Source: Candidatus Latescibacterota bacterium
GTDB lineage: Bacteria > Latescibacterota > UBA2968 > SICM01
Assembly (NCBI GenBank): GCA_965217865.1
Contig: CBDCJO010000002.1
Span: 5,248,001 to 5,312,000 of the forward strand
Direction: 5' to 3'
Length of the DNA stretch: 64,000 bases
Shown: positions 20,580 through 54,875 of the stretch, one piece after another
Numbering within the stretch: position 1 is the stretch's first letter
How the letters are laid out: each line of letters opens with the position of its first letter
The notes under the pieces: model-generated
Database searches by the model: none
What the model saw: only the letters and a program-made list of their open reading frames with translations
Told to the model about the DNA's origin: nothing
Made by a program: the position numbers and the translations under genes

Positions 20580-20880
20580 GGATCTTCCTAGTTTCTGGTG
20601 GAAAGCGAGGTTCTGTGAGGCGACATATCAGCGGGCCAACGGTCCGTGATCCGGATCAATCTCACGCATACCGTTCATCGCATGGCGATGTGAAATTATC
20701 GCGGCCCTTCAGGCCGCACGATGCTATTGCTTTCCAAAAACCCAGGGCAGCACGCCTGGGTTGAGGGACACGCGCCGATGGCGCTGAAGGTAGGCCCTGA
20801 ATTTGGTCTCGGCTTCTTGATTAGCTTGAAGCCCGGGTGTCAATCGGGAAGACAGGGTCCGCTATATTCCAAGGAGAGCC
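20580..20880. mobile_element. REP-rich non-autonomous element, copy 1 (mini IS200-like tnpA core within GGATCTT/GGCTCTCC ends)
   Basis: Co-linear with 25489-25802; the minus strand retains degraded DERY(A)*D*. Confidence 0.8.
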
Positions 20881-20943
20881 AAATTGATAAAGGGGTGGAG
20901 CCGCTTCCGTTGAATTTTTCAATAGTCATCTATTGTCCGCAGC

Positions 20944-21756
20944 TTACGGGGCGCTAAAGGTCTCCATTCCGTTCTGATTGTACAACCCGATTCTCGCAAA
21001 AGGCGGGACCTTTTCATTTTTCAGATCCAGAACGTGCAAGATCGCCCAGGCCTTATCGGTTCCCCGATGGAACATGAAGGCCGGTGTATTTTCACGATCC
21101 ACGATTATTGAAATGCTGGGTTGTTCTTTGTCATCTGTGAACGAAATCATCGGGTTTTCTTCTTCCAATCCCATAATCATCCGCCGGATCTTACCTTTCC
21201 CCACGATTTCCAACCAGGGCATATCATTTTCTGAAACTTTGAGACGGGCACGATCATTTCCGTGTGAATCGCCAAGGTATATGCCCACATCTCCTCCACT
21301 CTGCATCCCGAAACTCGCCCGATGGGCACCATTTTCGTCCGTGAAAGACAGCCGGGTATCTGAAGGCCCATGAGTCTCCAGGGTAGCACCTGCTTTTCCG
21401 TTTTTATCGTAGATCGCCAGGATTACACCCTTCTCGTCGTCGACTCCCAATTCCGCCCGGTCTCGACCTTCCGAGTCCATCAGGGTCAGCCGGACCTGCC
21501 TGTCTTCCCCTATCTCAAGTGCCGCTCGTGGATTTTGATGTTTGTCGTATATCTTCAAGGAAACACCTTCCTGGATCGATCCAAGCATAGCCCGTTTGTT
21601 CCCCGCTTGATCGATCACGATAAAGCTCTCCGCCTTGACGATTTTTCTGTTTTGGATCGCCAATATCGTTCCAAGGATGATCAAACCAAATACGATATTG
21701 AGGATTAAAATGCGATTCAATTTTTTTTCTAATCCTTTGAGTTTTTCTTCGTTCAT
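20944..21756 (-). CDS. Hypothetical membrane-anchored beta-repeat protein
   Basis: N-terminal TM followed by ~23-aa repeats L.(I/L).D..G..RA.L. Confidence 0.8.
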   Translation of the reverse strand: MNEEKLKGLEKKLNRILILNIVFGLIILGTILAIQNRKIVKAESFIVIDQAGNKRAMLGSIQEGVSLKIYDKHQNPRAALEIGEDRQVRLTLMDSEGRDRAELGVDDEKGVILAIYDKNGKAGATLETHGPSDTRLSFTDENGAHRASFGMQSGGDVGIYLGDSHGNDRARLKVSENDMPWLEIVGKGKIRRMIMGLEEENPMISFTDDKEQPSISIIVDRENTPAFMFHRGTDKAWAILHVLDLKNEKVPPFARIGLYNQNGMETFSAP

Positions 21757-21957
21757 TTGATGCCTCCATTGCTTGTCTTATAGTATTATATCGATGTCGT
21801 AAAATACTGCAGAGCAAAGAATAAAATTTTAGATGCGAACATGCCCAGGTTGAAGGTTCGTGAGTTCTTCTGATCTATTTCAGCCTGGAGTGAGCGCCTG
21901 TCGTTGAAACCGACTGTGGGGGAGGGGCCTAAGCGAGGGTATTTCACCAACGGGGTT

Positions 21958-22347
21958 TCAGATCGACGGTTTGGAGTCTGCAGTAGGCTGGATCTCGTAG
22001 CTGAGGACAGCGGTGTCCAGTGAATCGTAGATCGTAAAGAGACGGTCGAGTTGGGTGGTTGCAAAGACGCTGTCCATTCGTTTGGGCACATTGACCAGGC
22101 GCATGTCCCCGCCGGCGTTTCGCAGGGTTGTTAAGCTGGCCACAAGGGTGCCGAAGATCGCGCTTCCAAACCATCTCACGTGCTGCATGTCCACAATGAT
22201 CTTCTTGTAGCCGTCTCGGAGGAGTGTCCCGAACCGGTCGTGAAAATCGCTGACTTCCGGGGTGCTGACGATCTCGCTCGTAGGCCTGAGAACGGTCACG
22301 TCGCCCCTTTTTTCTTCTTCGATCTCCAACGGAACTCCCAATGCCAC
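21958..22347 (-). CDS. STAS-domain anti-sigma factor antagonist
   Basis: KIIVDMQHVRWFGSAIFG, GGDMRLVN, TQLDRLFTIY. Confidence 0.88.
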   Translation of the reverse strand: MALGVPLEIEEEKRGDVTVLRPTSEIVSTPEVSDFHDRFGTLLRDGYKKIIVDMQHVRWFGSAIFGTLVASLTTLRNAGGDMRLVNVPKRMDSVFATTQLDRLFTIYDSLDTAVLSYEIQPTADSKPSI

Positions 22348-22396
22348 TTCGATGTGGCCTTACGTGTCTTCGCCTTCGAGAAAACCGTCTATAAAA

Positions 22397-23104
22397 CTAT
22401 GGTTGTCCTGCCCCAGCAGGACTGTGACTTTGCCAGAAAACCTTTCCAACGAAAAACGGGCCCAGGGACTCGATATATCTTGCCGTCTGCTGAGTTTTTC
22501 GCATATCCTGTACGATCCGGGAAAGGGGATAGAGGCTCTCACCCACCAATCCGATCACAAATTCATTGTCATTTCGATCGAGCCCGTGACATGCCAGGCG
22601 GATATCGTGGGCGAACCCGGAACGGCCATAAGAGATGCCGATAGCAGCGTGTTCCAGGAGAATTTTATCCTGCTCCTCCTGAGAGAGCAGTTGGAATTCC
22701 GATTTCCGACGCAGCGGATACCAGATTGCCCACGGAAATTCGGGGTTCAAAGCGTTCCGGCGGGGTTTGGCCAGGAGCCAGTCCTCCTTGTCCCGCTCGT
22801 GTCCGGTTGAATATGTCCTGCCGGTCATCGTCAGTGCCGGTTTTTGTTTCAGAGATACAAAAGTATTGCTTACAAGCAGGGACCTCGCCTCAGTTATGAG
22901 GAGAACGGGGTTTTCGGCCATAAGCAGCAGACCGACGCCACGGGGATCGTGCAGATCACGATAAAGAACGCCTTCCAATCCGCTGGCCTGAAGCGAGTCT
23001 ACCAGTGGACTTTCATCTAAACATTCCCCGAAAGCCTGAAGCTGGCAGTAGAGACGGGGTTCATCAGCCTGAATATCATGCAATGAAAGATTCCGGATCT
23101 GCAA
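22397..23104 (-). CDS. Chlorite dismutase / coproheme decarboxylase (Cld/HemQ) family heme protein
   Basis: WYPLRR, ILLEHAAIG (proximal His), HGLDRNDNEFVI, GPFFVG. Confidence 0.82.
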   Translation of the reverse strand: MQIRNLSLHDIQADEPRLYCQLQAFGECLDESPLVDSLQASGLEGVLYRDLHDPRGVGLLLMAENPVLLITEARSLLVSNTFVSLKQKPALTMTGRTYSTGHERDKEDWLLAKPRRNALNPEFPWAIWYPLRRKSEFQLLSQEEQDKILLEHAAIGISYGRSGFAHDIRLACHGLDRNDNEFVIGLVGESLYPLSRIVQDMRKTQQTARYIESLGPFFVGKVFWQSHSPAGAGQP

Positions 23105-23340
23105 TGTTCTCTCGTGTTAGGTTTGAGTCCCGATTTAGCGCCTTCAATTTACCCTGCCATATGAATGAAGTCAAGGTATTATCAGTTTGGTTGAGGAGCC
23201 TGATTATGGATGCGAAACGTACGGTTTTCAGATTGACACAGGGATAAAATAGTTCTAAGTTCCGGGTTCCGGAGAATTTCAAATTCCGATTTAATAGGTT
23301 CCGTGTTCCGGATGGTGTCGGTCAGTGAAAGGAAAAAATT

Positions 23341-24690
23341 ATGGCCCAGATCGACTGGCAGAAAATTCAGTCCGAGGCGGTGGAGCATCTTCGGGCACTG
23401 GTTAGAGTCGACACCACGAATCCCCCGGGGAATGAGCGGCCGGCGGCGGAATACATTGCGGGTGTCTGCGAAAAGGCCGGACTCAAAACAGAGGTCGTTG
23501 AATCCGGCGGTCCAAATCGGGGTAACGTGGTGGCCAGGATGGTCGGAAACGGGAAGGCCCGCCCCGTTCTTCTCCTATCTCATTTAGACGTGGTGCCCGC
23601 GGAACCGTCGAAATGGACCCATCCGCCATTTGGCGGAGATCTGGCTGAGGGATATGTCTGGGGGAGGGGATCGGTGGACTCAAAGTTGACGGCTGCCGTG
23701 GGGTTGACCACCCTTCTTCTCTGCGCTCGAACAGGGACCGCCCTGAAGCGTGATCTCATTCTAGCGGCCACCGCGGACGAAGAGATGGGAGGTCCGGCGA
23801 ATGGTGCGGCGTGGCTTGCAAACAACCGGAAGGACCTGATTGACGCGGAGTACGTGATCAACGAAGGAGGGGGATTCGCGCTGGAAATCGGCGGGAAAAG
23901 GTTCTACGTCTGTCAAACCGCTGAAAAAGGGGCATGCGACGTGGATTTGATCGGGAAAGGGATGCCGGGACACGCCTCCGTTCCCCACGATGATAACGCG
24001 ATTGTCCATCTTGCGGAGTCGGTGGTCAAATTGGGTTCCGGACGGCTCGGTTTTCACGTGACGGAGACGGCTCGCGGGTTCTTCGAGAAGGCGGCTGCAG
24101 CCCAGGACAGTGAGGAGAATGCCCGCCTGCTGCGAGATATGCTGGATCCGAAGAAAGAGCCGGAGACCTTTTGCCGCCTCCCTACGGACGACCCCACGCG
24201 GTTGATGTTCGACGCCATGCTCCGGAACACGGCGGCCCCCACGATATTAAATGGGGGGGTAAAACGGAATGTCATCCCTTCGGAGGTGAGCCTGAGCATG
24301 AGTGGAAGGCCGCTGCCGGGCCAGACGAAGGAATCCATCATCGGAGAGCTAAGAGAGAAGGTCGAAGACCGGGTGGAAATCGTCGAAGGCCGATGGCGGC
24401 CGGGAATAGAGTCGAACCCGGACTCGCCCCTTTTCGAGGCCATGGATCGCGCAATCAAAAGGGTCGACCCGGAAGGTCAGGTTGTCCCGTTTCTGATCAC
24501 CGGGGGGACGGATGCTCACCAACTGGATCCCATTAATGCGACGGTCTATGGATTTTTACCGATGCGATATGAACCGGGATGGGCTTATTTCGATCTTTGC
24601 CACGGGCACGATGAACGGATTTCGGAAGCGTCTGTGGGGTTCGGTGTGAAGGTCCTGTATGAGACGATTTGTGATCTGAATCGTGCTTGA
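23341..24690 (+). CDS. M20/M25/M40 family metallopeptidase/deacylase
   Basis: SHLDVVPA, WGRGSVDSK, ADEE, INEGG, GGTD, HGHDERI. Confidence 0.93.
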   Translation: MAQIDWQKIQSEAVEHLRALVRVDTTNPPGNERPAAEYIAGVCEKAGLKTEVVESGGPNRGNVVARMVGNGKARPVLLLSHLDVVPAEPSKWTHPPFGGDLAEGYVWGRGSVDSKLTAAVGLTTLLLCARTGTALKRDLILAATADEEMGGPANGAAWLANNRKDLIDAEYVINEGGGFALEIGGKRFYVCQTAEKGACDVDLIGKGMPGHASVPHDDNAIVHLAESVVKLGSGRLGFHVTETARGFFEKAAAAQDSEENARLLRDMLDPKKEPETFCRLPTDDPTRLMFDAMLRNTAAPTILNGGVKRNVIPSEVSLSMSGRPLPGQTKESIIGELREKVEDRVEIVEGRWRPGIESNPDSPLFEAMDRAIKRVDPEGQVVPFLITGGTDAHQLDPINATVYGFLPMRYEPGWAYFDLCHGHDERISEASVGFGVKVLYETICDLNRA

Positions 24691-24798
24691 TTCGAAAGTT
24701 ATATACGTTGACACGATCGATTTATGCGGCGCTTCTGTCGGCCATAGAAATGATCAAATCTCATTCATAGATTCAAAATACGTTAACCATTTCCAAAA

Positions 24799-25440
24799 GT
24801 GAGGGGGATCGTGAAGAATAAGACAAAAGAAAAATTACAGCGCGGAGAGGTTGTCCTTGGGGCGACCATCGGGACACCCACCCCGATCGTTCGGGTGGTC
24901 TGGAACGATCAGGTCGCTATCAAGAAGGCCCTTGACGTCGGGGCCTGGGGGCTTATCATCCCGTGGGTAAACAATCGGGAACAGGCCGAGGCGGCCGTAA
25001 GAGCGGCGAAATATCCTCCGATGGGCACACGCGGGTTCGGTCCCAGGTGGGTAATGGTTTCGGGTGGGGAACCCGTTGAGTACGCGAAGACGGCCAATGA
25101 GGAGACGCTGGTCATCGTTCAGATCGAGACTGCTGAAGCGGTTGAAAATCTTGAAGAGATCCTGACCACTCCCGGTGTGGATGGCTATCTTATCGGTCCG
25201 ATGGACCTTTCAGCATCTCTGGGCCATCTGGGGAATCCAGCCCACCCCGAGGTTGAAAAGGTCATCGAGGATGTGATCACAAGAAGTAGAAAACTGAATG
25301 TCCCGGGGGGATATGCAAACGCCACCACGGAGCTCTGTCTGAGGCGGATCGAATAGGGGTTTCAAATGGTGACGGTGGGAGGAGATCTGAGTTTTCTGAA
25401 AATGGGCGCTCAAGGGGTGTTGGAGAAAATGAAAGAGGGA

Positions 25441-25452
<12 letters not shown>
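24799..25452 (+). pseudogene. HpcH/HpaI aldolase pseudogene (internal deletion plus nonsense codon)
   Basis: GATIG is fused directly to TPTPIVRV, so the IDxEH region is lost. After the TAG at 25354 the frame continues GFQMVTVGGDLSFLK to TGA 25452. Confidence 0.85.
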
Positions 25453-25488
<36 letters not shown>

Positions 25489-25802
25489 GGATCTTCCTAG
25501 TTTTTGGTGGAAAGCAAGGTTCTATGAGGCGACGCATCAGCGGGCCAACGGTCCGCGATCCGGATCAATCCCATACATACCGTAGATGAATCAGGACAGG
25601 AATTGAGGGATGTGAAATTATCGCGGCCCTTCAGGCCGCACGACGCTATTGTTTCGCACGACCCAGGGCGTTGCCCTGGGTTAAGGGACAACGCGCCGTT
25701 GGCGCTGAAAGAAGGCCCTGACTATAGTCTCGGCTTCTCGATTAGCTCGAAAGCTCGGATGTCAATCGCGAAGACAGGTTCCACTATATTACACGGAGAG
25801 CC
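25489..25802. mobile_element. REP-rich non-autonomous element, copy 2, with 8-bp target duplication
   Basis: Flanks AAAATGCA / AAACTGCA; the minus strand retains VLIHL fused to RYVWD*. Confidence 0.85.
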
Positions 25803-25971
25803 AAACTGCAAAGTTCTCGAAAAAAGGAACCGCGCATTTGTGCTTGACCCGGACTTTCCAGTCTCATTATCTTTCGCAATTAGAAGATTAAGGCTTGACT
25901 TTTGGTCCCTTTTTCGTTATATTAAGTGTAGAGAAAACAACTAACTTAACCAAAAAAAGGGAGGAAGGAAA

Positions 25972-26856
25972 ATGAACTTGTTGACGGCGATTGAAAAGTT
26001 CCCGACGCAGGAATCATGCATTGAGCATCTTGAGCGGGTAAGGTTCAGAGATGATCCGTTTTGTCCGTTATGCGGTGCTGTTGGTGAGTGTGCTCGAAAG
26101 AAAGAGGGAAACATTATAGGGCGTTGGAACTGCCATGCCTGCAAGTCTAGCTTCAACGTCCTTTCTGGGACAATATTTCAGGGAACGCACCTTCCACTAC
26201 AGAAGTGGTTTATGGCAATCGCATTGATCGTCAACGCCAAGAAAAGCCTGTCCAGTTGCCAGCTTGCCCGGGACCTGAACCTTACCCAACGGTCCGCATG
26301 GTACGTGCAACAGCGGATTCGTGCCGAGATGGCAACAAGGCAGGGGAAGGTATTGTTGCGCGGGATCGTCGAAGCCGACGAGACCTACGTAGGAGGCAAG
26401 CCACGGAAACGCAACAGGCAGTCAGGTGGCGGTGGCAACGCTCCCAGAGGACGCGGGACTAGCAAGACTCCGGTTATAGGAGCCGTGGAGCGTGGCGGGA
26501 AGGTAGTTGCCCGTGTGGCGGACGATCTGTCAGGCAGGGGAGTTCTGGCCTTCATCAAACAGGCGATAGACCCTTCGGAGTCGGTGCTTGTCACGGACGA
26601 ATTTAGCGCCTACAACACCGTAAGGCAAATCATGAGCCATGCTGTGATTCACCACGCCAGGCAATACGCGGACGGAGATATCCACACCAACACGATTGAT
26701 GGCGTATGGTCCCTGCTCAAGCGAGCCTGGTACGGTTCACATCATCACTACACGAAGCGTTACACGCCGTTCTACGTGGCCGAAGCGTGCTACAAATACA
26801 ATAACCGGAAGAACAAGCGGACGTTTGATACGTTCATGAAGGGATGCTTTGCATGA
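25972..26856 (+). CDS. IS1595 family transposase
   Basis: Zn ribbon CPLC...CHAC, GTIF, HTH, EADETY, VTDE, HTNTIDG. Confidence 0.95.
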   Translation: MNLLTAIEKFPTQESCIEHLERVRFRDDPFCPLCGAVGECARKKEGNIIGRWNCHACKSSFNVLSGTIFQGTHLPLQKWFMAIALIVNAKKSLSSCQLARDLNLTQRSAWYVQQRIRAEMATRQGKVLLRGIVEADETYVGGKPRKRNRQSGGGGNAPRGRGTSKTPVIGAVERGGKVVARVADDLSGRGVLAFIKQAIDPSESVLVTDEFSAYNTVRQIMSHAVIHHARQYADGDIHTNTIDGVWSLLKRAWYGSHHHYTKRYTPFYVAEACYKYNNRKNKRTFDTFMKGCFA

Positions 26857-26978
26857 CCTTTGCACGCTTTGCATTTTTTCGGACCTTCTCTAGTTGTTTT
26901 ATCAAGTAGTCAATACCCTCATCAATTTCTATACAACTGAAAAAGACGCATTGTCATATCTCACACGGAAAGGGGTTT

Positions 26979-27305
26979 ATGAATAGCTTATCAAGGAAGC
27001 CACATGATAGTATTTTAGACCCAAAGATTGAAAATGTGGTTAAGATTCTACAGAAAAATGGAGTAGAAACTTGCCAGTCATGCCAGGGTGGAGAAGGACA
27101 TGCTTACGACCAGCCAACGGTAGAGTTTCGTGGTGGAGTTGGGGAAGGTCCTCGTGCTTACGGGGTTGCGGTGATTCACGGATTGCCCGTTACAAAGTTG
27201 TCGAGGGAATGGGGTGTGCAGGATAACGAATTGACGGGACCGCATTGGGCAATGGAATTTAATCCGCGCTTTCTTCCGGTCCCGTCAATTCCTGAGGGCT
27301 ACTAG
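26979..27305 (+). CDS. IS passenger protein with D.KI..VV.IL...G.ET.xSCQG..H motif
   Basis: RBS AAGGGG; 108 aa; lies inside the IS IRs. Confidence 0.75.
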   Translation: MNSLSRKPHDSILDPKIENVVKILQKNGVETCQSCQGGEGHAYDQPTVEFRGGVGEGPRAYGVAVIHGLPVTKLSREWGVQDNELTGPHWAMEFNPRFLPVPSIPEGY

Positions 27306-27472
27306 CAATTGTTGTTTCTGATCAGGCGTGCACATTCTAAGCACTGTTCTTTGCCTCCAGTGCCCGAGCGTCTGTTTTCTGTCTCGATGTTATTGCCCGT
27401 ATTGCAGTTTGTGCACTCGTGGTAAACAATCGCATCATCGTCGTCAGAATGCCACGGACTTATTCTGGCCAT
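27302..27472 (-). CDS. 56-aa Cys/His-rich passenger protein (putative Zn-binding)
   Basis: RBS AAGGAGG; MARISPWHS...VYHECTNCNTGNNIE...GTGGKEQCLECARL. Confidence 0.75.
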   Translation of the reverse strand: MARISPWHSDDDDAIVYHECTNCNTGNNIETENRRSGTGGKEQCLECARLIRNNNC

Positions 27473-27491
27473 ATTATCACCTCCTTTCGAT

Positions 27492-27611
27492 TTACAGGAT
27501 ACCATCCGCCTTCAGCCTCACCACCAGATAGGCTTGCGGCCTATCGCCTTTCAGGCTGTTGCAGGCTCCGCAAAGCAGTTGCAGGTTGTCCTGGTGGTCG
27601 GTTCCTCCTTT
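27492..27611 (-). pseudogene. C-terminal HNH endonuclease remnant
   Basis: KGGTDHQDNLQLLCGACNSLKGDRPQAYLVVRLKADGIL*; no start codon; truncated ~40 nt from the right IR. Confidence 0.8.
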
Positions 27612-27731
27612 GACGTCAGGTGCGGTGTGAAGTTACTCAGTTTGGTTTGTAAAGTCAAGCCTTAATCTTCTAATTGCGTTATCTTTAATGCCAAAGATGT
27701 ATTCGTTGAATTTAGCCGTTGGAGGACTGTC

Positions 27732-28730
27732 TTGGCGCTGGTTACGATGAAGCAGATCCTGGACGAGGCAACTCAAGGGAACTATGCCGTTGGCGCGTTT
27801 AACGTGAATAACCTTGAGCAGATCAAGGGAATTATGGAGGCCTCACGCCAGACGAAATCCCCCGTTATTCTTCAGGCCAGCCGGGGTGCCCGAAAATATG
27901 CAGGGAGAAGATTCCTTCGACACCTGATCCTCGCTGCTGTCGAAGAATATCCGGAAATTCCGATCGCGATGCACTTGGACCACGGAAACAGCCCTGAATC
28001 TTGTCAGGAGGCCATCGAGGACGGGTTTACATCGGTGATGATGGATGGCTCCCTGATGGAGGATGGGAAGACCCCGGCTTCGTATGAGTATAACCTGAAC
28101 GTCACCAGAGAGGTCGTGAAGTATGCCCACGATCGGGGCGTGACAGTAGAGGGTGAAATCGGTTGTCTTGGGGGAATCGAAGACGGGGTGGGCTCGGGTG
28201 AGGTGATGCTTGCGGACCCGGATCAGGCATTGGAATTCGCGGAGGCGACAAGAGTGGACGCCCTGGCTTTGGGATTCGGCACGAGTCATGGGGCATATAA
28301 ATTCAAGAAAGAGCCGAAACTGGCCTATCACATCGTGGAACAGGTCAACAAGTCCAGGCCCGACCTTCCCCTCGTTAGCCACGGTTCTTCCTCCGTGCCT
28401 CGGGATCTGGTTGATCGGGTCAACTCCTTTGGAGGGAACCTTCCGAATGCGATGGGGGTTCCGCTTTCACAGTTGGTCCGTTCGATCGAGTTCGGGGTGC
28501 GAAAAATTAATATCGACACGGATACTCGCCTGGGTACGACGGGTATCATCCGGGAATTTTTCGCGAACCATCCGGATAAATTCGATCCTAGGGATTACAT
28601 GAAACCCGCCACAGAGGAAATTACCCGAATTGTAGTCGAGAGGATGCATGCATTTCGGACGGCCGGGCATGCTGGGGACTATTCGCCTGATAATATTGAA
28701 GATGTGAAGGCTTTTTACCGGACTAATTGA
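27732..28730 (+). CDS. fba: Class II fructose-bisphosphate aldolase
   Basis: YAVGAFNVNN, HLDHG, FTSVMMDGS, GTSHGAYK, HGSSS, KINIDTD, DPRDY. Confidence 0.96.
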   Translation: MALVTMKQILDEATQGNYAVGAFNVNNLEQIKGIMEASRQTKSPVILQASRGARKYAGRRFLRHLILAAVEEYPEIPIAMHLDHGNSPESCQEAIEDGFTSVMMDGSLMEDGKTPASYEYNLNVTREVVKYAHDRGVTVEGEIGCLGGIEDGVGSGEVMLADPDQALEFAEATRVDALALGFGTSHGAYKFKKEPKLAYHIVEQVNKSRPDLPLVSHGSSSVPRDLVDRVNSFGGNLPNAMGVPLSQLVRSIEFGVRKINIDTDTRLGTTGIIREFFANHPDKFDPRDYMKPATEEITRIVVERMHAFRTAGHAGDYSPDNIEDVKAFYRTN

Positions 28731-28824
28731 GGGTTCGGTCGCACAGGGATTCTATGCTTCGGTTAAACAACCCCTGGAAAAGGAGGGATTATCTCGCCTT
28801 AACCTAACAGTCTGCAAAAAGTTA

Positions 28825-28853
28825 TTGACAAAGGCGGTCCACAGAGCTATTAT
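28825..28853 (+). promoter_or_regulatory. Sigma-70-type promoter
   Basis: TTGACA-N17-TATTAT. Confidence 0.65.
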
Positions 28854-28870
28854 AGTATGAAATCAAGAGG

Positions 28871-29260
28871 ATGCTTGAAAACCGTTCGGGATCAAATCTC
28901 ATTCTGCATCACTTGATTTCTTTCAGGCGGCTTTTTATAGTATGGATCTTCGGCGGGTTGACCATCGGTTGCCTCGCCTTTCTAATAAAGATATTATTCG
29001 ATTACTCTTCCTCGTCCTCGGTATGGTATAGCAAGGTTCAGGATGCCAAATACCAGATGGAGCAAGCGGAGGGGAAGGTCGGTGAGTTGATCGGGGGCAA
29101 AGACGCCGCAAAGGCCAGGGCCCTTGAGTTTGAGGAAGAGGTGAAGACCCTGGAGAAGATGAAGGCGGAACTCAAGGTCAAAATCGAAGAGGTGAAGCGG
29201 GAGCACACAAAGAAGGGAAAGGTCATCCTCCAACGAACCCCGAATCAATCGAAAGATTAG
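28871..29260 (+). CDS. Bitopic membrane coiled-coil protein (paralogue-like to 11852)
   Basis: TM ending FLIKILFDY (compare FLIPIFGDF) followed by a long coiled coil. Confidence 0.8.
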   Translation: MLENRSGSNLILHHLISFRRLFIVWIFGGLTIGCLAFLIKILFDYSSSSSVWYSKVQDAKYQMEQAEGKVGELIGGKDAAKARALEFEEEVKTLEKMKAELKVKIEEVKREHTKKGKVILQRTPNQSKD

Positions 29261-29479
29261 AAAAAACAACCCGATTGTGAAACCGATGGGCCCGGAAAAC
29301 CATCGATCTCAAGTGTGCAAGGCGCGGTATCAGGATCGCGTCTTTTTTATTGATTGTGGTTTGTATGTTGATGAAAAACCGTCAAAAAACCCAACGGTTT
29401 TGATGTGGTTTGTGAGAGCACAATTCTTCCGTGACACGAGGATTGTTTTGCGGCTGAAAGGCCAGCCATCCGACCCTGA

Positions 29480-46074: not shown

Positions 46075-46878
46075 CTAACGGTGGGAGGGATCGGTGTCCT
46101 CGGTTTCCGTACCGAATCGCTTTTTTCCTAAGGTTTCCATCCGGTGAAACCTTTCGGCCTCCAGGGACTTGTCCACTGCCTGTTGTAATCCCTCCGATAC
46201 ATAACTGGGAACTCTCGAAATGAAGAAATTGGCGATGGATCCGATGAGGCATAAAACAGCGACTATCGCGTAGATTTTGAGTTTCCTTGAACTCCGGTGT
46301 TTGCGCCGCCGCCGGCGCCGGTGATAAGTGAAGTGGTCTGATTGTGGCTCAAGATCCCCGGAATTTTGGGGCGGTGTTTGAGTTCGGTCGTAGTTTTGAG
46401 GGCTGGGGGCCGGTGCCGCGGTTTGAGGAAAGGCTGTTTCAACCGGGCCCGGGTTCGGTGTTTCTACCGGGGTGGGAGTATCCAAAGAAAATGGTTGGAC
46501 GACCCTAAGGATTTTTGAAACCAGGTCTTGAAGGCTGAATGGTTTGGGGGCGAAATCTTCGACTCCCAAGGTTTCCAATTCTTCAATTTTCCTTTCGCTT
46601 AGATGCGCGGAGATAATGATAACAGGCAGATTGAGACCTTCTTCCCGGATGAAATCCAGGACAGATTCTCCCTGAACTGTGGGCATATGAAGGTCGAGGA
46701 GGATGAGGTCCGGTGGATCGTGGGTAATCAGGTCGATGGCCTCGGTCCAACTGGAGGTTGTGATGGCTTCGAAGTTGCAGGAACGAAGATGCTGGTTCAG
46801 CAACTTCAGGACGACGGGCTCGTCATCGAGGACCAGGATTCGTTTTGGTTTGAGTGCGGTGTACATGATTTGTTCCAA
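46075..46878 (-). CDS. Receiver domain + Pro-rich linker + poly-Arg + TM (membrane-tethered response regulator)
   Basis: ILVLDDE/DLILLDLHMP/PKPF, then RRRRRRKHR and LKIYAIVAVLCLIG. Confidence 0.88.
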   Translation of the reverse strand: MEQIMYTALKPKRILVLDDEPVVLKLLNQHLRSCNFEAITTSSWTEAIDLITHDPPDLILLDLHMPTVQGESVLDFIREEGLNLPVIIISAHLSERKIEELETLGVEDFAPKPFSLQDLVSKILRVVQPFSLDTPTPVETPNPGPVETAFPQTAAPAPSPQNYDRTQTPPQNSGDLEPQSDHFTYHRRRRRRKHRSSRKLKIYAIVAVLCLIGSIANFFISRVPSYVSEGLQQAVDKSLEAERFHRMETLGKKRFGTETEDTDPSHR

Positions 46879-46889
46879 GGTTAATCGAC

Positions 46890-47486
46890 TCAGCGCGCCA
46901 GGAGTTCATTGATAAGGACGATGAAAGATCCGAGCAAGCAGGTAAGGGCGATTCCCAAATAGGGTTTAAGGTTATTGAGTTGCAATCCACGGTGAGGATG
47001 TTCGACATTCTTTGGAGACGGGTCAGGCCTGTCAATCTCAGGATTTTCAGGCAAATCCTCTGGTAGGGAGGGGGAGAAGACCTCTGGAATGAACGGAGCC
47101 GGCTGATCGGACTGTCCAAGCACCTTCACCACGGTCGCAACAAGCTCATCCAGTAAAAAAGGCTTTGTTATGAAATCATTGGCGCCCTGCATGCGGAGAT
47201 ATTGCATTTTTTCATAGTTGAGAAAAGAGGAGACGATGATGACCGGCAGGTTGGGGCATTCCTCCTTGATAAAGTCCAGAACGGTTTCTCCCTGAATCGT
47301 GGGCATCTGGAGGTCAAGCAGGATGAGATCAGGCGGATCGTAGGTGACCTGTTCAACGGCGTCGGTCTATTTATCCGTTGAGAGGGTCTCGAAGTTACAC
47401 GACCGAAGATGATTGTTGAGCAATTCCAGCATATAGGGTTCGTCATCGAGGATCAGAATGCGTTTGAGCTGTGAGATGGTTTCCAT
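46890..47486 (-). pseudogene. Receiver + linker + TM paralogue interrupted by TAG (TGG to TAG)
   Basis: ATG 47486 METISQLKRILILDDE...STDK*TDAV; the paralogues have W at this position (SQWTEA, SSWTEA). Confidence 0.85.
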
Positions 47487-47547
47487 GATTCTTTTTCTCC
47501 GAGGTAAAGATCACAGGTTAAATTCTCTTGCTTCCACCATATGATTA

Positions 47548-47563
47548 TGCAATGCCTGTGCCA
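47548..47563 (-). promoter_or_regulatory. Sigma-54 promoter (-24/-12) for the receiver operon
   Basis: Minus strand TGGCAC-AGGCA-TTGCA, full consensus. Confidence 0.75.
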
Positions 47564-47765
47564 GAAAAATCGACCTGCTGATATCCATTTATTTAAAACG
47601 GACTTAAAATCATTTCGCTCGGAAAAAACCGGAAGCCTGGGTTGGATTTATCAAGGATTATTAGCAACAGTTGCCAAATCCGAACTCCCGAAGAGATAAT
47701 TTTGTTATCTGCATTCTCCGTTTGAAATTTTACTTTTCAAGTGACTGCTCACCTGGCCATTTGCC

Positions 47766-47794
47766 TTGACACAAGTCCGCTTTGCGGGTATCAT
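47766..47794 (+). promoter_or_regulatory. Sigma-70-type promoter of yajQ
   Basis: TTGACA-N17-TATCAT. Confidence 0.7.
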
Positions 47795-47817
47795 AGCGCA
47801 GAGGAAAGGAGGTCCAG

Positions 47818-48312
47818 ATGGCACCAGAGGCTAACTTCTTCGACATCGTGTCGAAAATTGATACTCAGGAGGTTCGAAACGCCGTGGACCAGGCCCAAAA
47901 AGAAATCCGGCAGCGATACGATTTTAAGGGGAGCAAGAGCGCCATCGAGTTGGTTGAGGACGAATTGGTTCTGGTGTCCGACGACGAAGGAAAGCTCAAG
48001 AGTGTGGTCGATGTTCTGGAATCCAAGATGGTTCGAAGGAAGATTTCCATGAAGGCCCTCAACTATGGAAAGATCGAGCCTGCATCGGGGGGGACGGTGC
48101 GACAGGTGGTCGGGTTTAAACAGGGGGTTGATAAGGAGAATGCGAAGCGGATCACAACCATCGTCAAAAACTCCAAATTGAAGGTTCAGGCCCGGGTCCA
48201 GGACCAGCAGGTACGAGTCACGGGTAAAAAGATCGACGATCTCCAGACCATCATCGAAATGGTCAAGGAGGCGGACCTTGAGATACCGGTCCAGTTTGTG
48301 AATTACATGTAG
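47818..48312 (+). CDS. yajQ: YajQ family nucleotide/c-di-GMP-binding protein
   Basis: [27 protein letters not shown]. Confidence 0.95.
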
Positions 48313-48348
48313 ATTCGATACAATACGAGTTATAGAGGAGATAGGTAG

Positions 48349-49083
48349 ATGGGCCGGTTAGACGGCAAAGTTGCGATCATCACGGGTGGGGGAGGTGGGA
48401 TCGGCCGCGCGATGGCGCTGACATTTGCGCGGGAAGGTGCGAAGGTGACAGTGGTGGATAATCGTGAGGAGATGGCAGCTCAAACCCTGAGGGATGTCGA
48501 GAGGATCGGGGGAGATGGGGCGGCTTTGCAGGTAGACGTGACGAAGGATGAGGAGGTGCGCGGGATGGTGGGGCAGACAGTCGATCGATTCGGTCAGGTG
48601 GATATCCTGGTCAACAATGCGGGTATCTTTGCCGTCTATACCACCGAGACCTGCCCGGATGAAGAGTGGGACCGGATTTTCAATGTGAACACAAAGGGTG
48701 TTTTTCTCTGCAGTAGGGCGGTAATAGGACCGATGCGCGAGCGGAAAACCGGTGCGATCATCAACATGTCCTCTCTCGCGGCTAAAACCGGGGGACTGGC
48801 GGCCGGTCCTCCTTATTCGGCCTCCAAGGCGGCTGTCGCCTGTTATACCTGGTCCCTTGCCAAAGAGGTGGCCCCCGATATTCGGGTCAACGGGATTTTA
48901 CCCGGTCTCATCGATACCGAGATGACGAAGAATCACCCGGATTCCCTGGTTGCCGGAACGCCTCTAAAAAGAAAGGGGACGCCCCAGGAGGTGGCTAATG
49001 CGGCCCTCTTCCTGGCTTCGGATGAGGCATCCTTCGTTACGGGAGAGTTGATCAGCGTGAACGGCGGATTGTTCATGGATTGA
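48349..49083 (+). CDS. SDR family oxidoreductase
   Basis: TGGGGGIG, NNAG, YSASK, PGLIDT. Confidence 0.93.
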   Translation: MGRLDGKVAIITGGGGGIGRAMALTFAREGAKVTVVDNREEMAAQTLRDVERIGGDGAALQVDVTKDEEVRGMVGQTVDRFGQVDILVNNAGIFAVYTTETCPDEEWDRIFNVNTKGVFLCSRAVIGPMRERKTGAIINMSSLAAKTGGLAAGPPYSASKAAVACYTWSLAKEVAPDIRVNGILPGLIDTEMTKNHPDSLVAGTPLKRKGTPQEVANAALFLASDEASFVTGELISVNGGLFMD

Positions 49084-49179
49084 AAAGGGCCGGCAAGCGA
49101 AAAACGTGAAACGGCAAACGGATAATTAAAAAGGAAGGGGGTTTTTGAAGGGAAACAGATCAATCGGTTTAATGTTTTG

Positions 49180-50030
49180 GTAGGGGCGACCCGTTGGGTC
49201 GCCCATTGTCATTTGGGGTGGTTTGGAGTCTTACAGTGTGATTTCTACCGTGATGTCAAGCAGGTCTCGAAGGCGTGCAACCGCCCCCCCTGCGGCTTAA
49301 GTCACACCGGGGCACCCCTCCCGGGATGGGATTGGTGAAGTCCCCTCCTTGGAGGGGATTTAGGGGTGGATATGAGATAAGGAAAGACAGGATAGATTGG
49401 AGAGGCTCGGTTTTCGGGTGCTGCGATTTACTGAGGGTAATGTTAAGTAAAATCTCGAAGGTTGTGCTACATGGGATTCGGAATTGGATAGATGAGAATG
49501 GGATATGACCCACCCCGCCCCGGCTTAAATCACGCCGGGGAACCCCTCCCGGGAGGGGATTTAGAGTCTTACAGTATGACTTCTACGTATGCGGCTAAGG
49601 TCTAAATTGTAATAAGCTTCGACCACATTAAAATCTTCTGTGGCCTTCGACAAGCTCAGGATAAACTCCGTCGCATTTTTTGCGGAACGCAGTCGAAGGA
49701 CGGGGATGGGAGCCGGCATGGCGAGGGAATAAATTCCCTCGCCATCCTATCTAAGATACGTAAATCAATTTTTAGTCCCCGCTGATTGAAGTCCGCGAGG
49801 TAATGGGATAACCCCTTAGATTTGTGGGACCCGACTCCAGTCGGGGAATAAGGCCAACAGCCAAAAGAAAAGCATGGATCCTGGCCCTCCAGAGCCTATT
49901 CCCGGTCTGGAGACCGGTCCCACAAATTTTGGCCATATATGGCTATGGATTTTTATTGCAACTGAGCGTAACCAAGCCGCAATAAGGAATTATCAAATTG
50001 TAGGGGCACCGCATGCCGTGCCCCTACTGA
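49180..50030. repeat. REP/palindrome cluster of several families
   Basis: GTAGGGGCGACCC..GGGTCGCCC; CCCCTCC-TT-GGAGGGG; CCTTCGACAAGCTCAGG; TGGCGAGGGAA-TAAA-TTCCCTCGCCA; GTGGGACC..GGTCCCAC pair; GTAGGGGCAC..GTGCCCCTAC. Confidence 0.8.
49372..49508 (+). pseudogene. DUF559/Vsr-like endonuclease remnant between inverted REPs
   Basis: ATG AGA abuts DKERQDRLERLGFRVLRFTEGNVK*NLE...VLHGIRNWIDENGI*. Confidence 0.7.
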
Positions 50031-50050
50031 CCGTTCGAACGGATTAGCCC

Positions 50051-51097
50051 TCAATTTCTCGCAAACCGGTACGGCGACGGCCTCGGAAGAGCTTCCAGCA
50101 AGGCCTCCGTTGTCGGAAATAGCAGATCGGCCTTCCTTGACGTGACTGAAAAAACCTGCCCGGTTGTCCTGAGACGCAGGTAAACACCCCCCTTAGCATG
50201 CTGCGTCCCTACTTCGAGCGTATCGACTGCCCCCTCAATATCCTCCAGGTAAAGTACCCGCTTCGTCCGGTCGAAACCGTATTCGGATTCAGGGATATGA
50301 GGGTCGTATAACGCCTCGTACTGCAGGCCGGAGAGGAAGCCGATGTAGGCGAAGGCGCTTGTCGTATTGCACGCTTTCTCCTTTCCCCGCACCACGACGT
50401 ACCACTCGTATGTGGGCCCTTCCGGGAGTCGCCCCAGTGAACCGAGAGAATCCGCGATCGTTAGGCGGCGCAGAGTCTTCGTTGGACCCGTCTTATAGAT
50501 GACTTTAACGATGGGTTTCCTTGGAATCGCCCGGGGAAACACGTGAGGATCGATCATCGGGGGCTTCCCGGGAAGCGCTGGTCCCATCGCGAGACGGGGA
50601 TTTGCGTGGAAATGATAGACTGTATCCCATCCTGCTATTTGCACGTAGGATTCGCTCGCATCCCTCCCGGGGAGATCCTGCCCTACCCACAACTCAAGAA
50701 ACCCGCCGCCGGAGGCGTCTGTCAAGCGGACAGCCGTTGCCTGCTTGGGGGAGAGGCCGAATCGTGTGAAGGCCTCCGGATCCGTGCCGACGATCGACCC
50801 CATTCCCTTCAGGATCCCTTTGAGCAGCCGCTCCACGCGGTCCGTCTGCACGTAAGCGTCGAAAGTGTCGGGATAGCGCCAGGTTGAACCATCGAATCGG
50901 TAAGTGTATGGCTTCAAGTCTATTGCGGGAAACACTTGAAATTGTTGAACACGTTCGATAGAGAGTTTCGCAGGATCGACCAGCGCGCGAATCGCCCCGC
51001 TTTGGATGCGTCGTGCTGCCTCCCGGGTTCGTAGCATTTGGTCGGCGACGATCAGGATGGCCAGGACCACGATCGAAATTGCGAGGTGTCGGTTCAT
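50051..51097 (-). CDS. DUF4340-type ABC-associated membrane-anchored protein
   Basis: ATG 51097 overlaps the upstream stop (ATGA); N-terminal TM; repeated (F/Y)G(L/F)...L.VG...Y units. Confidence 0.75.
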   Translation of the reverse strand: MNRHLAISIVVLAILIVADQMLRTREAARRIQSGAIRALVDPAKLSIERVQQFQVFPAIDLKPYTYRFDGSTWRYPDTFDAYVQTDRVERLLKGILKGMGSIVGTDPEAFTRFGLSPKQATAVRLTDASGGGFLELWVGQDLPGRDASESYVQIAGWDTVYHFHANPRLAMGPALPGKPPMIDPHVFPRAIPRKPIVKVIYKTGPTKTLRRLTIADSLGSLGRLPEGPTYEWYVVVRGKEKACNTTSAFAYIGFLSGLQYEALYDPHIPESEYGFDRTKRVLYLEDIEGAVDTLEVGTQHAKGGVYLRLRTTGQVFSVTSRKADLLFPTTEALLEALPRPSPYRFARN

Positions 51098-54000
51098 GGG
51101 TTTCGGATCGGTTTTTGTCGCCTGAAATAACGTCTCAGACCATACAAAAGAATCGCTATGGGGCCCGCGCCCACGGCGAAAAACCGCCACAACCCTTTCT
51201 CCCGGGGGTCCTGAAAAACAAATCCCTGCCGGGTCTGGTTCCGGGCCTGGAGTTTGGCCATATCCGGGCCAAACGCCAGGTTGGCGACTGCGTTCAAAAG
51301 GAACTGGTTGTGCTGGAACTCAGGCGCATAGAGGTACTCGTCCCTGAACATCTCAGAACATCCAATCAGGAGCAGGGTCCCTTCCGCCTTCGCCGCATCC
51401 GAATCCTTAAGGCGCATCTCCCTGCCCCCGTCCTCCTCCTGAAAATTAACCTGAGGAAACCTCCCCTGAAGCATCATTGCTAGGGGCTGTTGGCCGGGAA
51501 GGAATTCTTGGAGGCTAAACGCCTCATCCGGCAGCCATCCCCCCTTCCAGTTGTAGGACCAGGACTTATCTGAAGTGGTGATCAGGACCTTGGGCGTGAT
51601 GTTCAGGGAATCCATCCTTGTTTGGTCCAGCGAAAACCGGTTTCCCCAGATAAAAAGCTGGTCTCCCAGCCTTCGCGTAATCGGGGATCCGCTCGAAAAG
51701 TTGGGGCCTACCGCCCGGATCAGAAAGGGGAGCGCCACTTCCTGCCCTTCGTACTCCCGGACCGCCCTTCGGTTGATTTGGGTCTCCAGACGCAGATGGG
51801 ATCGAGTCCTGTCCATCAGGACCTCCCGGACCTGTTCAACGCCGAACAGGCGCAGATAGGGGTTCAGATCCTGGAACTGCGGCTGTGGCCAGTAGACTGT
51901 CCGGAATCCCCTTCCCCGGTACTGGCGCTGCTGGATGTTGAAGTGCTGCAGGGCCACGATCGCTGTACCCCCACTTGACAGGTGGTCGCTCAGCAGGCGG
52001 ATAGCATTTGTCGCATCCCGGCGGGGTTGGAACCAGAGCAGCAGATCGGTTCCCTCCGGCAAATAGGGGTTTCGGGGGTCGACGGGGTGTACCCTGTACC
52101 CGTAGGCACCCAGCATCCGCTTTGCTTCGCTGTAGACGTCCGCACCCTTGGGGGGAATCAACCCTTTCTGGTGGTAGTCGTGGAAAGCTTCGGCGGGTGA
52201 AAGCCGGGGGGATTCGGCGATCACGGCCACCAGGGGCGCCTCGGCGCTCTCGATGCGGCGGACCGCGGCCACAAGGAGAAACTCGAGGTGGTCCAGCGTG
52301 CGTGTGTCAAGCCGGGGTATGATTGTGCTGCCTCCCCCCAGTGTAACGCGGAGGCCGCTCCAAACCTGACGGGAGACGGTTTCGTCGTTCAGAACAGTTC
52401 TCACCTCGAACGGCCCGAGACCCTGGGATGACAATGATGTCAAATCCGATTGTGGAAGCAGGTCGGGACGGAGGACCCGGACGTTAATCCCCAATTCGCG
52501 AAGCCTGGCGCGGATAGCCGCCTCGAGATGCTTCATGGAAGCGGGGAGGGAGGCCTTCGGGGTGATCACGAGCTCCACGCTCAGATTCGGGCTTCGTTCT
52601 GATAGCATTTGCCGGACCCGGAGCACGGGCGTGTTTGCCGCATCCCGGGTCAAGTCAAGGACAATACCGCCCGCATCCTGCCACATCTGCATCCCCATGA
52701 ACACAATCGCCAGAGCGATGGCTACGCGAATGGATAACCGGCGCCTCGGGGCGGACCAGGTCCCGCCCGTGGCTATGTAACGGCGAATCCCCAGGGCGAG
52801 GAGCAGAATCGGGATCAGAAACAGGGTTACGACCCGCCAGAAGGACCGTGAATAGGCGCTCAGAGGGGGAATCTCGGGAGGCGTGTAACGCTTCATACGT
52901 GCCCGAACAAGACGCTGCGGATCTGAATAGGTGCGCATCAGGGTCTTCAGAAACACCCTGTGTCCGTATCCGGGCTGGTTCAGGATGCCGTCCCGGAACA
53001 GGCTGGAGCTTCCCAGGACCAGGACCTGTCCCTTCCAGGGATCTTCAGGCTTAAGGAGGAGCATCAGGTTCTGCTTGCCGACCTTAAGCCGGGGTGTGAG
53101 TCCGGCATTGTCGAAGGGTTTTTGAGGAAGGCCTTCCACCCAGGCCTCTTCCGTGGTCGTGGCGAGGAGTTCGGCCTGATACCCGGCATCGGCCAGAAGG
53201 CGAGGTATGATCTGCAGGGGACTGGACGAGACGAAACTGAGACCGCCCCTTGCGGGGCCGGCAAAGCCCTTCAGGTTGTAGAACCCGGGCATGCAGCGGA
53301 GGTGAAACGGCGCTTCGACCTCGTGGACCTCACCCCCGGGGTCTGCCCAGAAGACAGGACCGCTCCGGCTGTCCATCAGAAGATCCGGTTGGGGGCGAAG
53401 ACCCAGGGGGGAAAGGAGAGACGCCCAGGCGGGTGACAGGGGAAAAGCCCGGTACTGGATCCCACCTGTTTCCGCTTTTTCATACTCCACGGTATACTGG
53501 CTGCCTGCCAGTACGGCGGTTCTCCCCGCCTCCAGGAAGCGTTGAAATTCCTTCAGATGGGAGGCGGTCATCCGTGCGGGCTGGATCCAGAACAACACAT
53601 CGGTCTCGGGCGGGATTCGGGGGTCGCTGTCCAGGTTGATCCGGATGACGTGTCCGAACTCTTTCAGGTGCTCCGCCAGCAGCTCGAAAGGCGGTGGGGC
53701 CGATACCGCGAACGTTGGACGCGGAGGATCCCTTAAAGCCTTCAGATTCTTGACGATTAGGTCTTCGAGATGCGGGAAATCGGTGGGTGTGATCCCCTGG
53801 ATCAGGACATCCTGATATTGTCCGTGAGAGAGGACCAGGGAGGACCAGACTTTCTGTTCGCTGTGCTCATCTCGGAGGATCCGGCGGGAACTGAAGGGAG
53901 AGGCTTTTTTTCGAGCGGCATAAGCCGCCCCCGAAGCGCCGCTCAACTCGGGGTCCAGGACCCGATACACGATTTTATCGGGTGCCTGGCGTTTTAAGGC

Positions 54001-54288
54001 ATCCAGAAGCGTGATTACTGAGCTTTCCACCCCTTTCAAATGAGATGGCATACGATCCCGGGCTGATACGAAGTAGGTAACGGCAAGTGGGCTCTTGAGC
54101 CCTGCCAGAAAAGCCCTGGTGTCCGACGAGAGGCTGGCGATGTCCCTTCCGGAGAGATCCAGTTTCACGCCACCGATGCGTGTAGCGATCCGCCCGGCGT
54201 AGACCACGATGAGGAGGAGGAAAAGGAAGAGGAGGATCGCACTTAGGATGAAACGTCGGTGGGCGGAGAGCCTAAAAATAGATCTCAT
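51094..54288 (-). CDS. GldG-like ABC auxiliary protein with duplicated domain
   Basis: Two halves, each TM-(K/V)LDL(S/T)...VWS.L...FQP...DLLMD/EVLMD...LL.GxS.(L/M)FRD-TM. Confidence 0.8.
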   Translation of the reverse strand: MRSIFRLSAHRRFILSAILLFLFLLLIVVYAGRIATRIGGVKLDLSGRDIASLSSDTRAFLAGLKSPLAVTYFVSARDRMPSHLKGVESSVITLLDALKRQAPDKIVYRVLDPELSGASGAAYAARKKASPFSSRRILRDEHSEQKVWSSLVLSHGQYQDVLIQGITPTDFPHLEDLIVKNLKALRDPPRPTFAVSAPPPFELLAEHLKEFGHVIRINLDSDPRIPPETDVLFWIQPARMTASHLKEFQRFLEAGRTAVLAGSQYTVEYEKAETGGIQYRAFPLSPAWASLLSPLGLRPQPDLLMDSRSGPVFWADPGGEVHEVEAPFHLRCMPGFYNLKGFAGPARGGLSFVSSSPLQIIPRLLADAGYQAELLATTTEEAWVEGLPQKPFDNAGLTPRLKVGKQNLMLLLKPEDPWKGQVLVLGSSSLFRDGILNQPGYGHRVFLKTLMRTYSDPQRLVRARMKRYTPPEIPPLSAYSRSFWRVVTLFLIPILLLALGIRRYIATGGTWSAPRRRLSIRVAIALAIVFMGMQMWQDAGGIVLDLTRDAANTPVLRVRQMLSERSPNLSVELVITPKASLPASMKHLEAAIRARLRELGINVRVLRPDLLPQSDLTSLSSQGLGPFEVRTVLNDETVSRQVWSGLRVTLGGGSTIIPRLDTRTLDHLEFLLVAAVRRIESAEAPLVAVIAESPRLSPAEAFHDYHQKGLIPPKGADVYSEAKRMLGAYGYRVHPVDPRNPYLPEGTDLLLWFQPRRDATNAIRLLSDHLSSGGTAIVALQHFNIQQRQYRGRGFRTVYWPQPQFQDLNPYLRLFGVEQVREVLMDRTRSHLRLETQINRRAVREYEGQEVALPFLIRAVGPNFSSGSPITRRLGDQLFIWGNRFSLDQTRMDSLNITPKVLITTSDKSWSYNWKGGWLPDEAFSLQEFLPGQQPLAMMLQGRFPQVNFQEEDGGREMRLKDSDAAKAEGTLLLIGCSEMFRDEYLYAPEFQHNQFLLNAVANLAFGPDMAKLQARNQTRQGFVFQDPREKGLWRFFAVGAGPIAILLYGLRRYFRRQKPIRNP

Positions 54289-54339
54289 ATATTAGGGGTA
54301 ACTGGAAGTCTGGCAGTAGGTTGTGTGGAATAAAAAACG

Positions 54340-54875
54340 TGAGGCAGAGCATCAGCGGGCCACAGGCCCGTGATTCCTTGGCCCAGCCCAACGGGCTGGG
54401 TTTTGAATGTGGGCGCATCAGCGGGCCAACGGTCCGCGATCCGGACCAATCCCACACATACCTGTAGATGAATCAGGATGCGGGACAGGAATTGGGGGAT
54501 GTGAAATTATCGCGGCCCTTCAGGCCGCACGACGCTATTTTATTTCACTAACAGGGCGACTCGCCTGGGTTAAGGAACAACGCGCCGTTGGCGCTGAAAG
54601 AAGGTTTTTGGTGGAAAGCGAAGTTCTTTAGGTGACGCATCAACGGGCCAACGGCCCGTTGATTCCTTTGCCCAGTCCGACGGGCTGGGTTTTTAATGTG
54701 AGTGATTCGAGCGGGCCAACGGTCCGCGATCCGGATCAATCCCACCCATACCGTTATTATCGCGGCCCTTCAGGCCGCACGACGCTATTTTATTTCACTA
54801 ACCCAGGGCGTTGCCCTGGGTTGAGGAACAACGCGCCGTTGGCGCTGAAAGAAACCCCTGACTACAGTCTCGGCG
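54340..54875. mobile_element. Tandem REP-rich mini-elements, copies 3 and 4, inside the ABC operon
   Basis: Same palindromes as 20580 and 25489; minus strand 54500-54449 reads IPQFLSRILIHL followed by YVWD. Confidence 0.8.

Follow-up and report, generated by a model that had tools for sequence, protein, structure and literature searches.

Hairpin repeats of a Latescibacterota genome are probably ISL3-ended miniature transposons around a deleted subclass 1.2 HUH transposase gene

A 64,000-nucleotide stretch of the genome of a Candidatus Latescibacterota bacterium (GenBank assembly GCA_965217865.1, contig CBDCJO010000002.1, positions 5,248,001 to 5,312,000 of the forward strand; hereafter the window, numbered from its first letter) contains four related units built of hairpins. 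Based on the sequence comparisons in this work, we propose that these units are non-autonomous miniature transposons with ISL3-type ends, enclosing the dead cassette of a subclass 1.2 HUH transposase gene, and that they were likely copied in trans by a DDE transposase of the ISL3 family. A first-pass annotation of the window had described them as an internally deleted derivative of an IS200-like HUH transposase that spread as a REPIN-like unit; the gene ancestry is upheld below, and the outer ISL3-type layer, which that annotation overlooked, speaks for another mode of spread.

Results

ISL3-type ends enclose the hairpin arms

The four units and their four hairpin types lie where the first-pass annotation had placed them, and copy 2 serves here to describe the anatomy. 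It spans 25489-25802, with its two limits set exactly at the outer edges of the terminal inverted repeats. The right ISL3-type terminal inverted repeat (25489-25511, plus strand; 23 bp, 14/23 identical to the left end) is followed inward, all on the minus strand, by a right hairpin arm reduced to one fused hairpin (25540-25559; copies 3 and 4 show the full arm with its three hairpins), a transposase stump (25565-25611), a left arm of three hairpins (25623-25705, with hairpins at 25692-25705, 25662-25680 and 25623-25639) and a left extension of 97 bp (25706-25802) that ends in the left terminal inverted repeat (25780-25802). The unit is bracketed on the plus strand by an 8-bp target duplication, at 25481-25488 by the right end and 25803-25810 by the left, identical at 7/8 positions. 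The same plan holds for the family, in which extensions of 97 and ~54 bases beyond the arms end in 23-bp imperfect inverted repeats.

Copy 1 (20580-20880, minus strand), likewise complete, with both terminal inverted repeats as its limits (301 bp), lies between convergent open reading frames (ORFs), and its flanking 8-mers match at 4/8 positions. Copies 3 (54342-54604) and 4 (54605-54877), both on the minus strand, form a head-to-tail tandem pair from which both outer ends are gone: copy 3, with a right arm of the full three hairpins (54355-54440), a stump (54446-54500) and a left arm (54512-54594), stops 37 bp short of its right terminus, and copy 4, with a right arm (54643-54730), a stump holding the gene end only (54736-54755) and a left arm (54762-54845), lacks its left outer end from position 65 of the 97-bp extension.

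BLAST of the window units against the host genome (G000; 6.43 Mb in two contigs, C1 and C2; completeness 96%, contamination 9.3%) gave 52 loci, which became 50 when two insertion-split pairs were merged, with 58 cores and ~18 kb in total; the high genome-wide copy number expected from the window is thereby confirmed. At least one ISL3-type end is kept in 40/50 loci, the left in 28/50, the right in 27/50 and both in 15, where 15.1 would be expected if the two were independent. The two ends have thus been lost independently, and therefore no second, hairpin-bounded class of unit exists.

The 15 two-ended loci carry the signature of target duplication, as their flanking 8-mers match at 87/120 positions against 47.9 expected and a maximum of 69 in 20,000 re-pairings of the flanking 8-mers across these loci, and ten of the 15 match at 6/8 or better, against 0.85 expected. 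Among duplication lengths from 4 to 12, length 8 is the best (in the first nine pairs, 48/72 versus 28.0). The target is A+T-rich: the A+T content is 77% in the 55 8-mers by intact ends, 53% nearby and 52% by 38 truncated ends. ISL3 elements are described as making 8-bp repeats and as possibly preferring A+T-rich DNA (PMC3469429). Short tandem 7-base repeats holding the A+T-rich target motif often abut copies of the family and of the resident ISL3 as well (e.g. window 25451-25488).

The limits of the unit are also marked by an allele from sequencing run X6, a sister strain ~2% divergent across the copy 1 stretch. In one X6 contig (depth 32, 255 bases each side), window position 20576 is followed, after five other letters, by 20885, and the whole of copy 1 is missing. 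The allele may represent a site never occupied or a copy lost later; either way the inverted ends mark the unit limits. When reads were compared with four truncated copies, none showed a clean empty site, although one X6 joint passes over a right end, with an undefined stretch in between. Most outer truncations lie in the stretch from the terminus to the outermost hairpin, and the hairpin arms outlast the outer extensions; the truncations share no common cut motif, and many abut low-complexity repeats with short microhomology.

The copies are old and absent from 40 related genomes

Among 49 arms of at least 80 bases, the median pairwise identity is 86.5%, with ~8% of positions departing from the column majority. 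For the 46 loci with a match of at least 150 bases, the identity to the nearest neighbour ranges from 71 to 93.6% with a median of 90%, and recent activity is accordingly not supported: the copies look old, and the family looks inactive at present. The unit is absent from all 40 related genomes searched. The units are short and multicopy, and no ISL3 coding remnant was found inside them.

Head-to-tail arrays of two to four units occur at C2:4865411, C2:5137978 and C1:607414, with one internal joint (right end to left extension) in common; the two on C2 carry the same stump variant and are 93.6% identical across 514 bp. Two complete units, at C2:3050602-3051055 and C2:4838928-4839483, contain ~200 bp of other palindromic repeats, which are later nested insertions.

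The core is an internally deleted transposase gene

Across the 58 cores the stumps retain codons 1-52, 109-129 and 132-150 of the gene, and codons 53-108, the region with the HUH motif, are kept in none; the host-genome stumps therefore hold neither the HUH motif nor an intact frame. The catalytic-tyrosine motif YIRNQEKHH, from the codon 109-129 region, survives in one stump. When a longer genomic copy, the 50-aa stump at C2:2884966 (P0001), was the query, 340/348 candidate proteins reached E<=0.001, the best of them at 92% identity (E 5e-21), with Y1_Tnp as the Pfam family, so that the peptide similarity to the family is far above chance. The closest proteins are mostly 150 aa long with a YDERYVWD-like C-terminus, and the host-genome stumps are 84-95% identical to them over codons 132-150. 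By sequence, the solved structure nearest to one relative is that of an IS200-type transposase (2fyx, E 5e-6).

Of 160 related transposase loci fetched, in a sample biased toward relatives of the two queries, 158 were scored for motifs; YxxxQxxHH is present in 153/158 and H-hydrophobic-H in 155/158. These relatives belong to TnpA-Y1 subclass 1.2 as described in PMC6006769, with ~150 aa (class ~148 aa), both motifs and the specific C-terminal tail, whereas the host genome, unlike genomes with members of that subclass, holds stumps only. Therefore, the core derives from a TnpA-Y1 subclass 1.2 gene by internal deletion and is a remnant without an encoded enzyme, and the derivation from an IS200-like HUH gene of the form MPQSLS...DERYVWD, as first suggested from the window, is supported by intact relatives with the same hairpin arms.

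The extent of the remnant varies among the window copies. The first ~12 and last ~5 codons, given by the first-pass annotation for all four, hold for copies 2 and 3: the stump of copy 2 comprises codons 1-12 (with a small deletion), RYVWD and the stop, belongs to the commonest junction class and reads VLIHLRYVWD* in frame on the minus strand, and in copy 3 the core IPQFLSRILIHL lies at 54500-54465 on the minus strand as reported, with RYVWD one base out of frame relative to it and the stop codon mutated. They do not hold for copy 1, in which about the start codon is fused to the gene end from ~codon 143 (20656-20683, minus strand, reading DERYA*), or for copy 4, which has the end from codon 145.

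Full-length relatives with such termini and hairpin arms exist in other genomes; in the host genome, an intact subclass 1.2 gene was not found with Pfam, the NCBIfam RAYT (REP-associated tyrosine transposase, where REP stands for repetitive extragenic palindrome) model or tblastn, and no RAYT match exceeds the NF047646 cut-off. The 19 Pfam Y1 matches of the host genome, all of IS200 subclass 1.1 types as far as examined or grouped, comprise 13 near-identical copies, a further IS200 and fragments, and the hairpins of these resident IS200 elements differ from those of the family. A search for the intact gene among 60 relatives gave a closest match of 54% identity with one stop. One of the 13 subclass 1.1 copies, an intact transposase gene, lies in the window at 4802-5248.

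Similar hairpin arms flank intact genes in other genomes

The closest intact genes lie between inverted three-hairpin arms that resemble the window arms, and the hairpin order upstream of intact subclass 1.2 genes is that of the copy 2 left arm. An inverted repeat within 200 bases was found in 80 of the 134 relatives with enough flank, versus 0/73 distant-flank controls. The first-pass annotation had called this an established REP-flanked group, which does not agree with the subclass account in PMC6006769 (Quentin et al., 2018), which lists subclass 1.2 as a low-copy group that has no REP and, as a rule, no terminal hairpins; the arms are nonetheless present in our data. We found no description of arms at subclass 1.2 genes in the open-access literature, and the supplements of PMC6006769 may list such structures. 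Around the 160 related transposase loci, neither the ISL3-type outer end of the family nor its left extension was found.

Three other genomes hold such hairpins. One arm hairpin occurs 14 times in genome G134 (titled Limisphaerales), seven times in G132 and three times in G133, and a second arm pattern has 11 matches in G134, 18 in G132 and five in G133, against 0-3 in 57 other genomes, in which the arms differ or the gene is absent. In G134 five sites are inverted doublets, 207-285 bp long, that lack ISL3-type ends and whose direct repeats do not exceed the control; the gene start is kept there above all 300 shuffles in 6/9 sites examined, in five of the six to codon 12-13. At loci L280-L286 of G134 and L290 and L293-L295 of G132 lie dispersed three-hairpin arms as well as inverted doublets, without ISL3 ends. 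A subclass 1.1 IS200 element splits the closest subclass 1.2 gene of G134 (L289, C39:98400-100500).

These observations bear on the view of the first-pass annotation, namely that a subclass 1.2 or other Y1 transposase recognised the hairpins and moved the unit, REPIN-like, in the form of single-stranded DNA. The family arms are of the type found beside intact genes, dispersed arms or doublets without ISL3 ends occur in G134 and G132 (in G134 also without direct repeats above control), the host genome has its 13 near-identical subclass 1.1 copies, tandem arrays occur, and the position of the outer truncations would also suit this view. However, in the host genome the ISL3-type inverted ends outside the hairpins, at least one of which is present in 40 of the loci, coincide with 8-bp duplications, the target motif and the limits of the empty allele, and no intact subclass 1.2 gene, no RAYT above cut-off and no IS200 with matching hairpins is resident. 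REPIN-like spread is not supported in the host genome because IS200/REP-type and IS605-type elements are stated to make no target duplications (PMC3119063), and we regard it as quite improbable there; the REPIN-like picture suits G134 better, because its doublets lack ISL3 ends.

Deletion junctions are diverse, with one common class

Both arms are present in 47/58 cores, which fall into 24 breakpoint classes, so a single shared deletion junction, raised by the first-pass annotation, is not the rule. The commonest junction (codon 11-13 to 145-146, the 12|145 form) occurs in 16/47 cores, and some classes keep parts missing from it, which indicates that longer forms were deleted several times. 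The arm identity is 0.875 within a junction class versus 0.862 between classes.

An alternative is that ISL3 spread the full-length composite only, and that all deletions came later, in place, at hot spots, perhaps by the HUH enzyme of the cassette itself beside the hairpins. The number of breakpoint classes, several with parts that the common form lacks, would agree with this, as would the star-like divergence, the loose tie of junction class to arm sequence, the G134 stumps that also end at codon 12-13 in 5/6, and the cleavage by E. coli TnpA-REP on both sides of its own hairpin (PMC8266576). Against it stand the single junction class in 16/47 cores with about one base of microhomology, the lack of codons 53-108 in all 58 cores, the two distant arrays with the same diagnostic stump variant at 93.6% identity over 514 bp, and the want of a single cut motif at the outer truncations. 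We consider deletion wholly in place unlikely, and favour ISL3-driven copying that probably included the 12|145 form after its deletion. An inverted repeat formed by the first 14 and last 12 codons was tried as the cause of the kept ends and found weak, as a synonymous-codon null was beaten (p<=0.05) by 0/17 closest, 15/70 mid-range and 3/61 distant genes.

The ends point to a common ISL3 parent

The host genome has four resident ISL3 copies of 1327-1328 bp that are 99.9-100% identical and whose transposase measures 407 aa, with flanking 8-bp repeats matching at 8, 8, 8 and 6 of 8 positions. The end signature GG.TC..C-10-RTGGR is common to the family, these four copies and the ISL3 ends of class relatives, which were resolved in 9/28 loci, all with direct repeats of 7-8/8. 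A strict genome-wide scan for the signature gave 34 matches, and inward-facing pairs are formed only by the ISL3 copies and the family units. The resident ISL3 ends share 12-14/23 bases with the ends of window copies 1 and 2. Two identical ISL3 copies lie inverted, 2.7 kb apart, at C2:4033933-4039246, a possible composite or inversion site.

A second repeat family, a sister family of MITEs (miniature transposable elements with inverted repeats) with 22 loci, has ends that are 18-20/23 identical to the right end of the present family, with copy 2 as an example, and contents that are unrelated. Its two complete copies measure 582 bp (C2:5183172-5183753, L207) and ~215 bp, with duplications of 8/8 and 7/8. 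The near-identical ends of two repeat families point to a common ISL3 parent. A partial copy of the second family lies at window 2370-2659, and the family has no Rfam match. Five matches to the end pattern in viral contigs proved to be one chance site with no transposase nearby.

A different DDE family with 8-bp duplications, for instance IS1595, could instead have supplied the ends. IS1595 elements make 8-bp duplications, and 12 IS1595-type copies at 86-100% identity are in the host genome (three at 99.8-100% across a longer 1.23-kb stretch, nine at 86-90%), one of them beside copy 2. Their sequence, however, begins near window 25865-25877 and is unrelated there, and the inward-facing signature pairs include none of them; IS1595 was rejected as the origin of the ends, though an automatic search resolved IS1595 ends in 0/19 loci, and a source in another such family seems very improbable. 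The element that adjoins copy 2 occupies window ~25865-26860 and has low cover in run X6.

Host use and other features of the window

Keeping or spreading of the repeats by the host, for hairpins that serve as terminators, mRNA stabilisers or a small RNA, was also weighed. In its favour, 47/50 loci lie mainly outside ORFs of at least 200 aa, copy 2 folds better than 100/100 shuffles (z -2.9) and the arms outlast the extensions. An intergenic site is, however, expected of any tolerated insertion; Rfam has no match in the window at the gathering score and nothing relevant at E<=0.1 in the six loci searched; and the decay is heavy, with a copy missing in the sister strain and none in 40 relatives. 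Such use is hardly to be expected, and the family is a decaying selfish element as a genome feature, without shown host function.

Elsewhere in the window, long in-frame tandem repeats with periods of 147-208 bp fill ~56900-63150, and their reading frame is apparently broken upstream of a 1618-aa ORF at 58293-63149.

Discussion

We propose the following history for the ISL3-ended units. First, a cassette of the transposase gene and its inverted three-hairpin arms would have been placed between two ISL3 ends. An old burst of this composite may have followed, at a time when the gene was still present in good part or wholly in some copies, and the gene middle would then have been lost several times, with at least the codon 12|145 form probably copied further. 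Many copies would later have lost one or both ends in place, and some would have become tandem arrays. An ISL3 since lost was probably the driver, because the resident ISL3 is young and shares only 12-14/23 terminal bases with the family.

Several observations weigh against this proposal. An ISL3 with these exact ends was not found in the host genome, 131 class genomes, 167 phylum genomes, viral contigs or plasmids; the end pattern itself occurs in 0/131 class genomes and no plasmid, and the left extension has three weak matches of 28-29 bases, away from the terminus, in the 167 phylum genomes. The parent gene was possibly missed, given an assembly that is 96% complete and 9.3% contaminated. 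Five of the 15 two-ended loci, window copy 1 among them (4/8), match at no more than 5/8 of the duplication positions, and 35/50 loci lack at least one end in the alignment test. The X6 allele is a single contig with five other letters at the joint and possibly a later loss, and junction class barely tracks arm similarity, which leaves amplification after deletion unproven.

Each layer of the element has precedent, namely an ISL3-type MITE, a palindrome-associated transposable element (PATE) and a REP doublet, and we found no description of the combination of ISL3 ends with an HUH cassette in the open-access literature. The family resembles the 187-nt MITE of Microcystis aeruginosa PCC 7806 as reported in PMC11448079, which has no transposase, imperfect ISL3-like ends, 8-bp direct repeats and an ISL3 transposase in the genome; unlike that MITE, it carries an HUH cassette, matches the resident ISL3 ends loosely (12-14/23) and is old and eroded. 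With PATEs it shares the internal deletion of a Y1-type element whose terminal palindromes are kept along with short gene remnants, but it has terminal inverted repeats and target duplications, and PATEs, which derive from IS200/IS605 elements, are described with neither (PMC3119063).

The inverted hairpin doublet, the intergenic position, the tens of copies, the tandem arrays and the Y1 ancestry are all reminiscent of REPINs and RAYTs (10.1101/2021.07.10.451892; PMC8266576), as those sources portray them. The differences are that no cognate enzyme was found in the genome, that the protein is of class 1 and not class 2 (RAYT: YxxxNP), that target duplications are present and that the family occurs in one lineage only. 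Nor do the arms, judged by eye, have a GTAG/GTGG tetranucleotide at the hairpin foot. Mobile insertion cassettes and passenger-carrying insertion sequence derivatives have the ends of one family around unrelated cargo and are moved in trans. The cargo here, unlike theirs, is another mobile-element cassette, now non-coding, and not a host gene.

REPINs have been proposed to arise from the fused flanks of an IS200-like element (10.1101/2021.07.10.451892), and inverted-repeat-flanked TIRYTs were described by Di Nocera et al. (PMC3733652). On comparative grounds it is conceivable, though we put it forward only tentatively, that subclass 1.2 Y1 transposases, which have been described as neither IS-like nor REP-associated, run a so far unrecognised REP/REPIN-type system, in which they would cut near the arms, delete the middle of their own gene at a preferred point near codon 12 and leave mobile doublets; the host genome and G134 could then represent two independent REPIN births in which the ends of the parent gene are still legible, with the host doublet hijacked by an ISL3 transposase. 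No substrate of subclass 1.2 enzymes was described in the literature searched, and the arms together with the codon 12 breakpoint in two unrelated genomes define a DNA substrate for them and predict where it would be cut. The stumps show directly that loss of the central part of a Y1 gene can give rise to hairpin doublets, as has been proposed for REPINs and PATEs. Since the repeat body would come from an HUH family and its mobility from a DDE (ISL3) transposase, hairpin doublets may not be assumed to have been moved by the enzyme whose elements they resemble.

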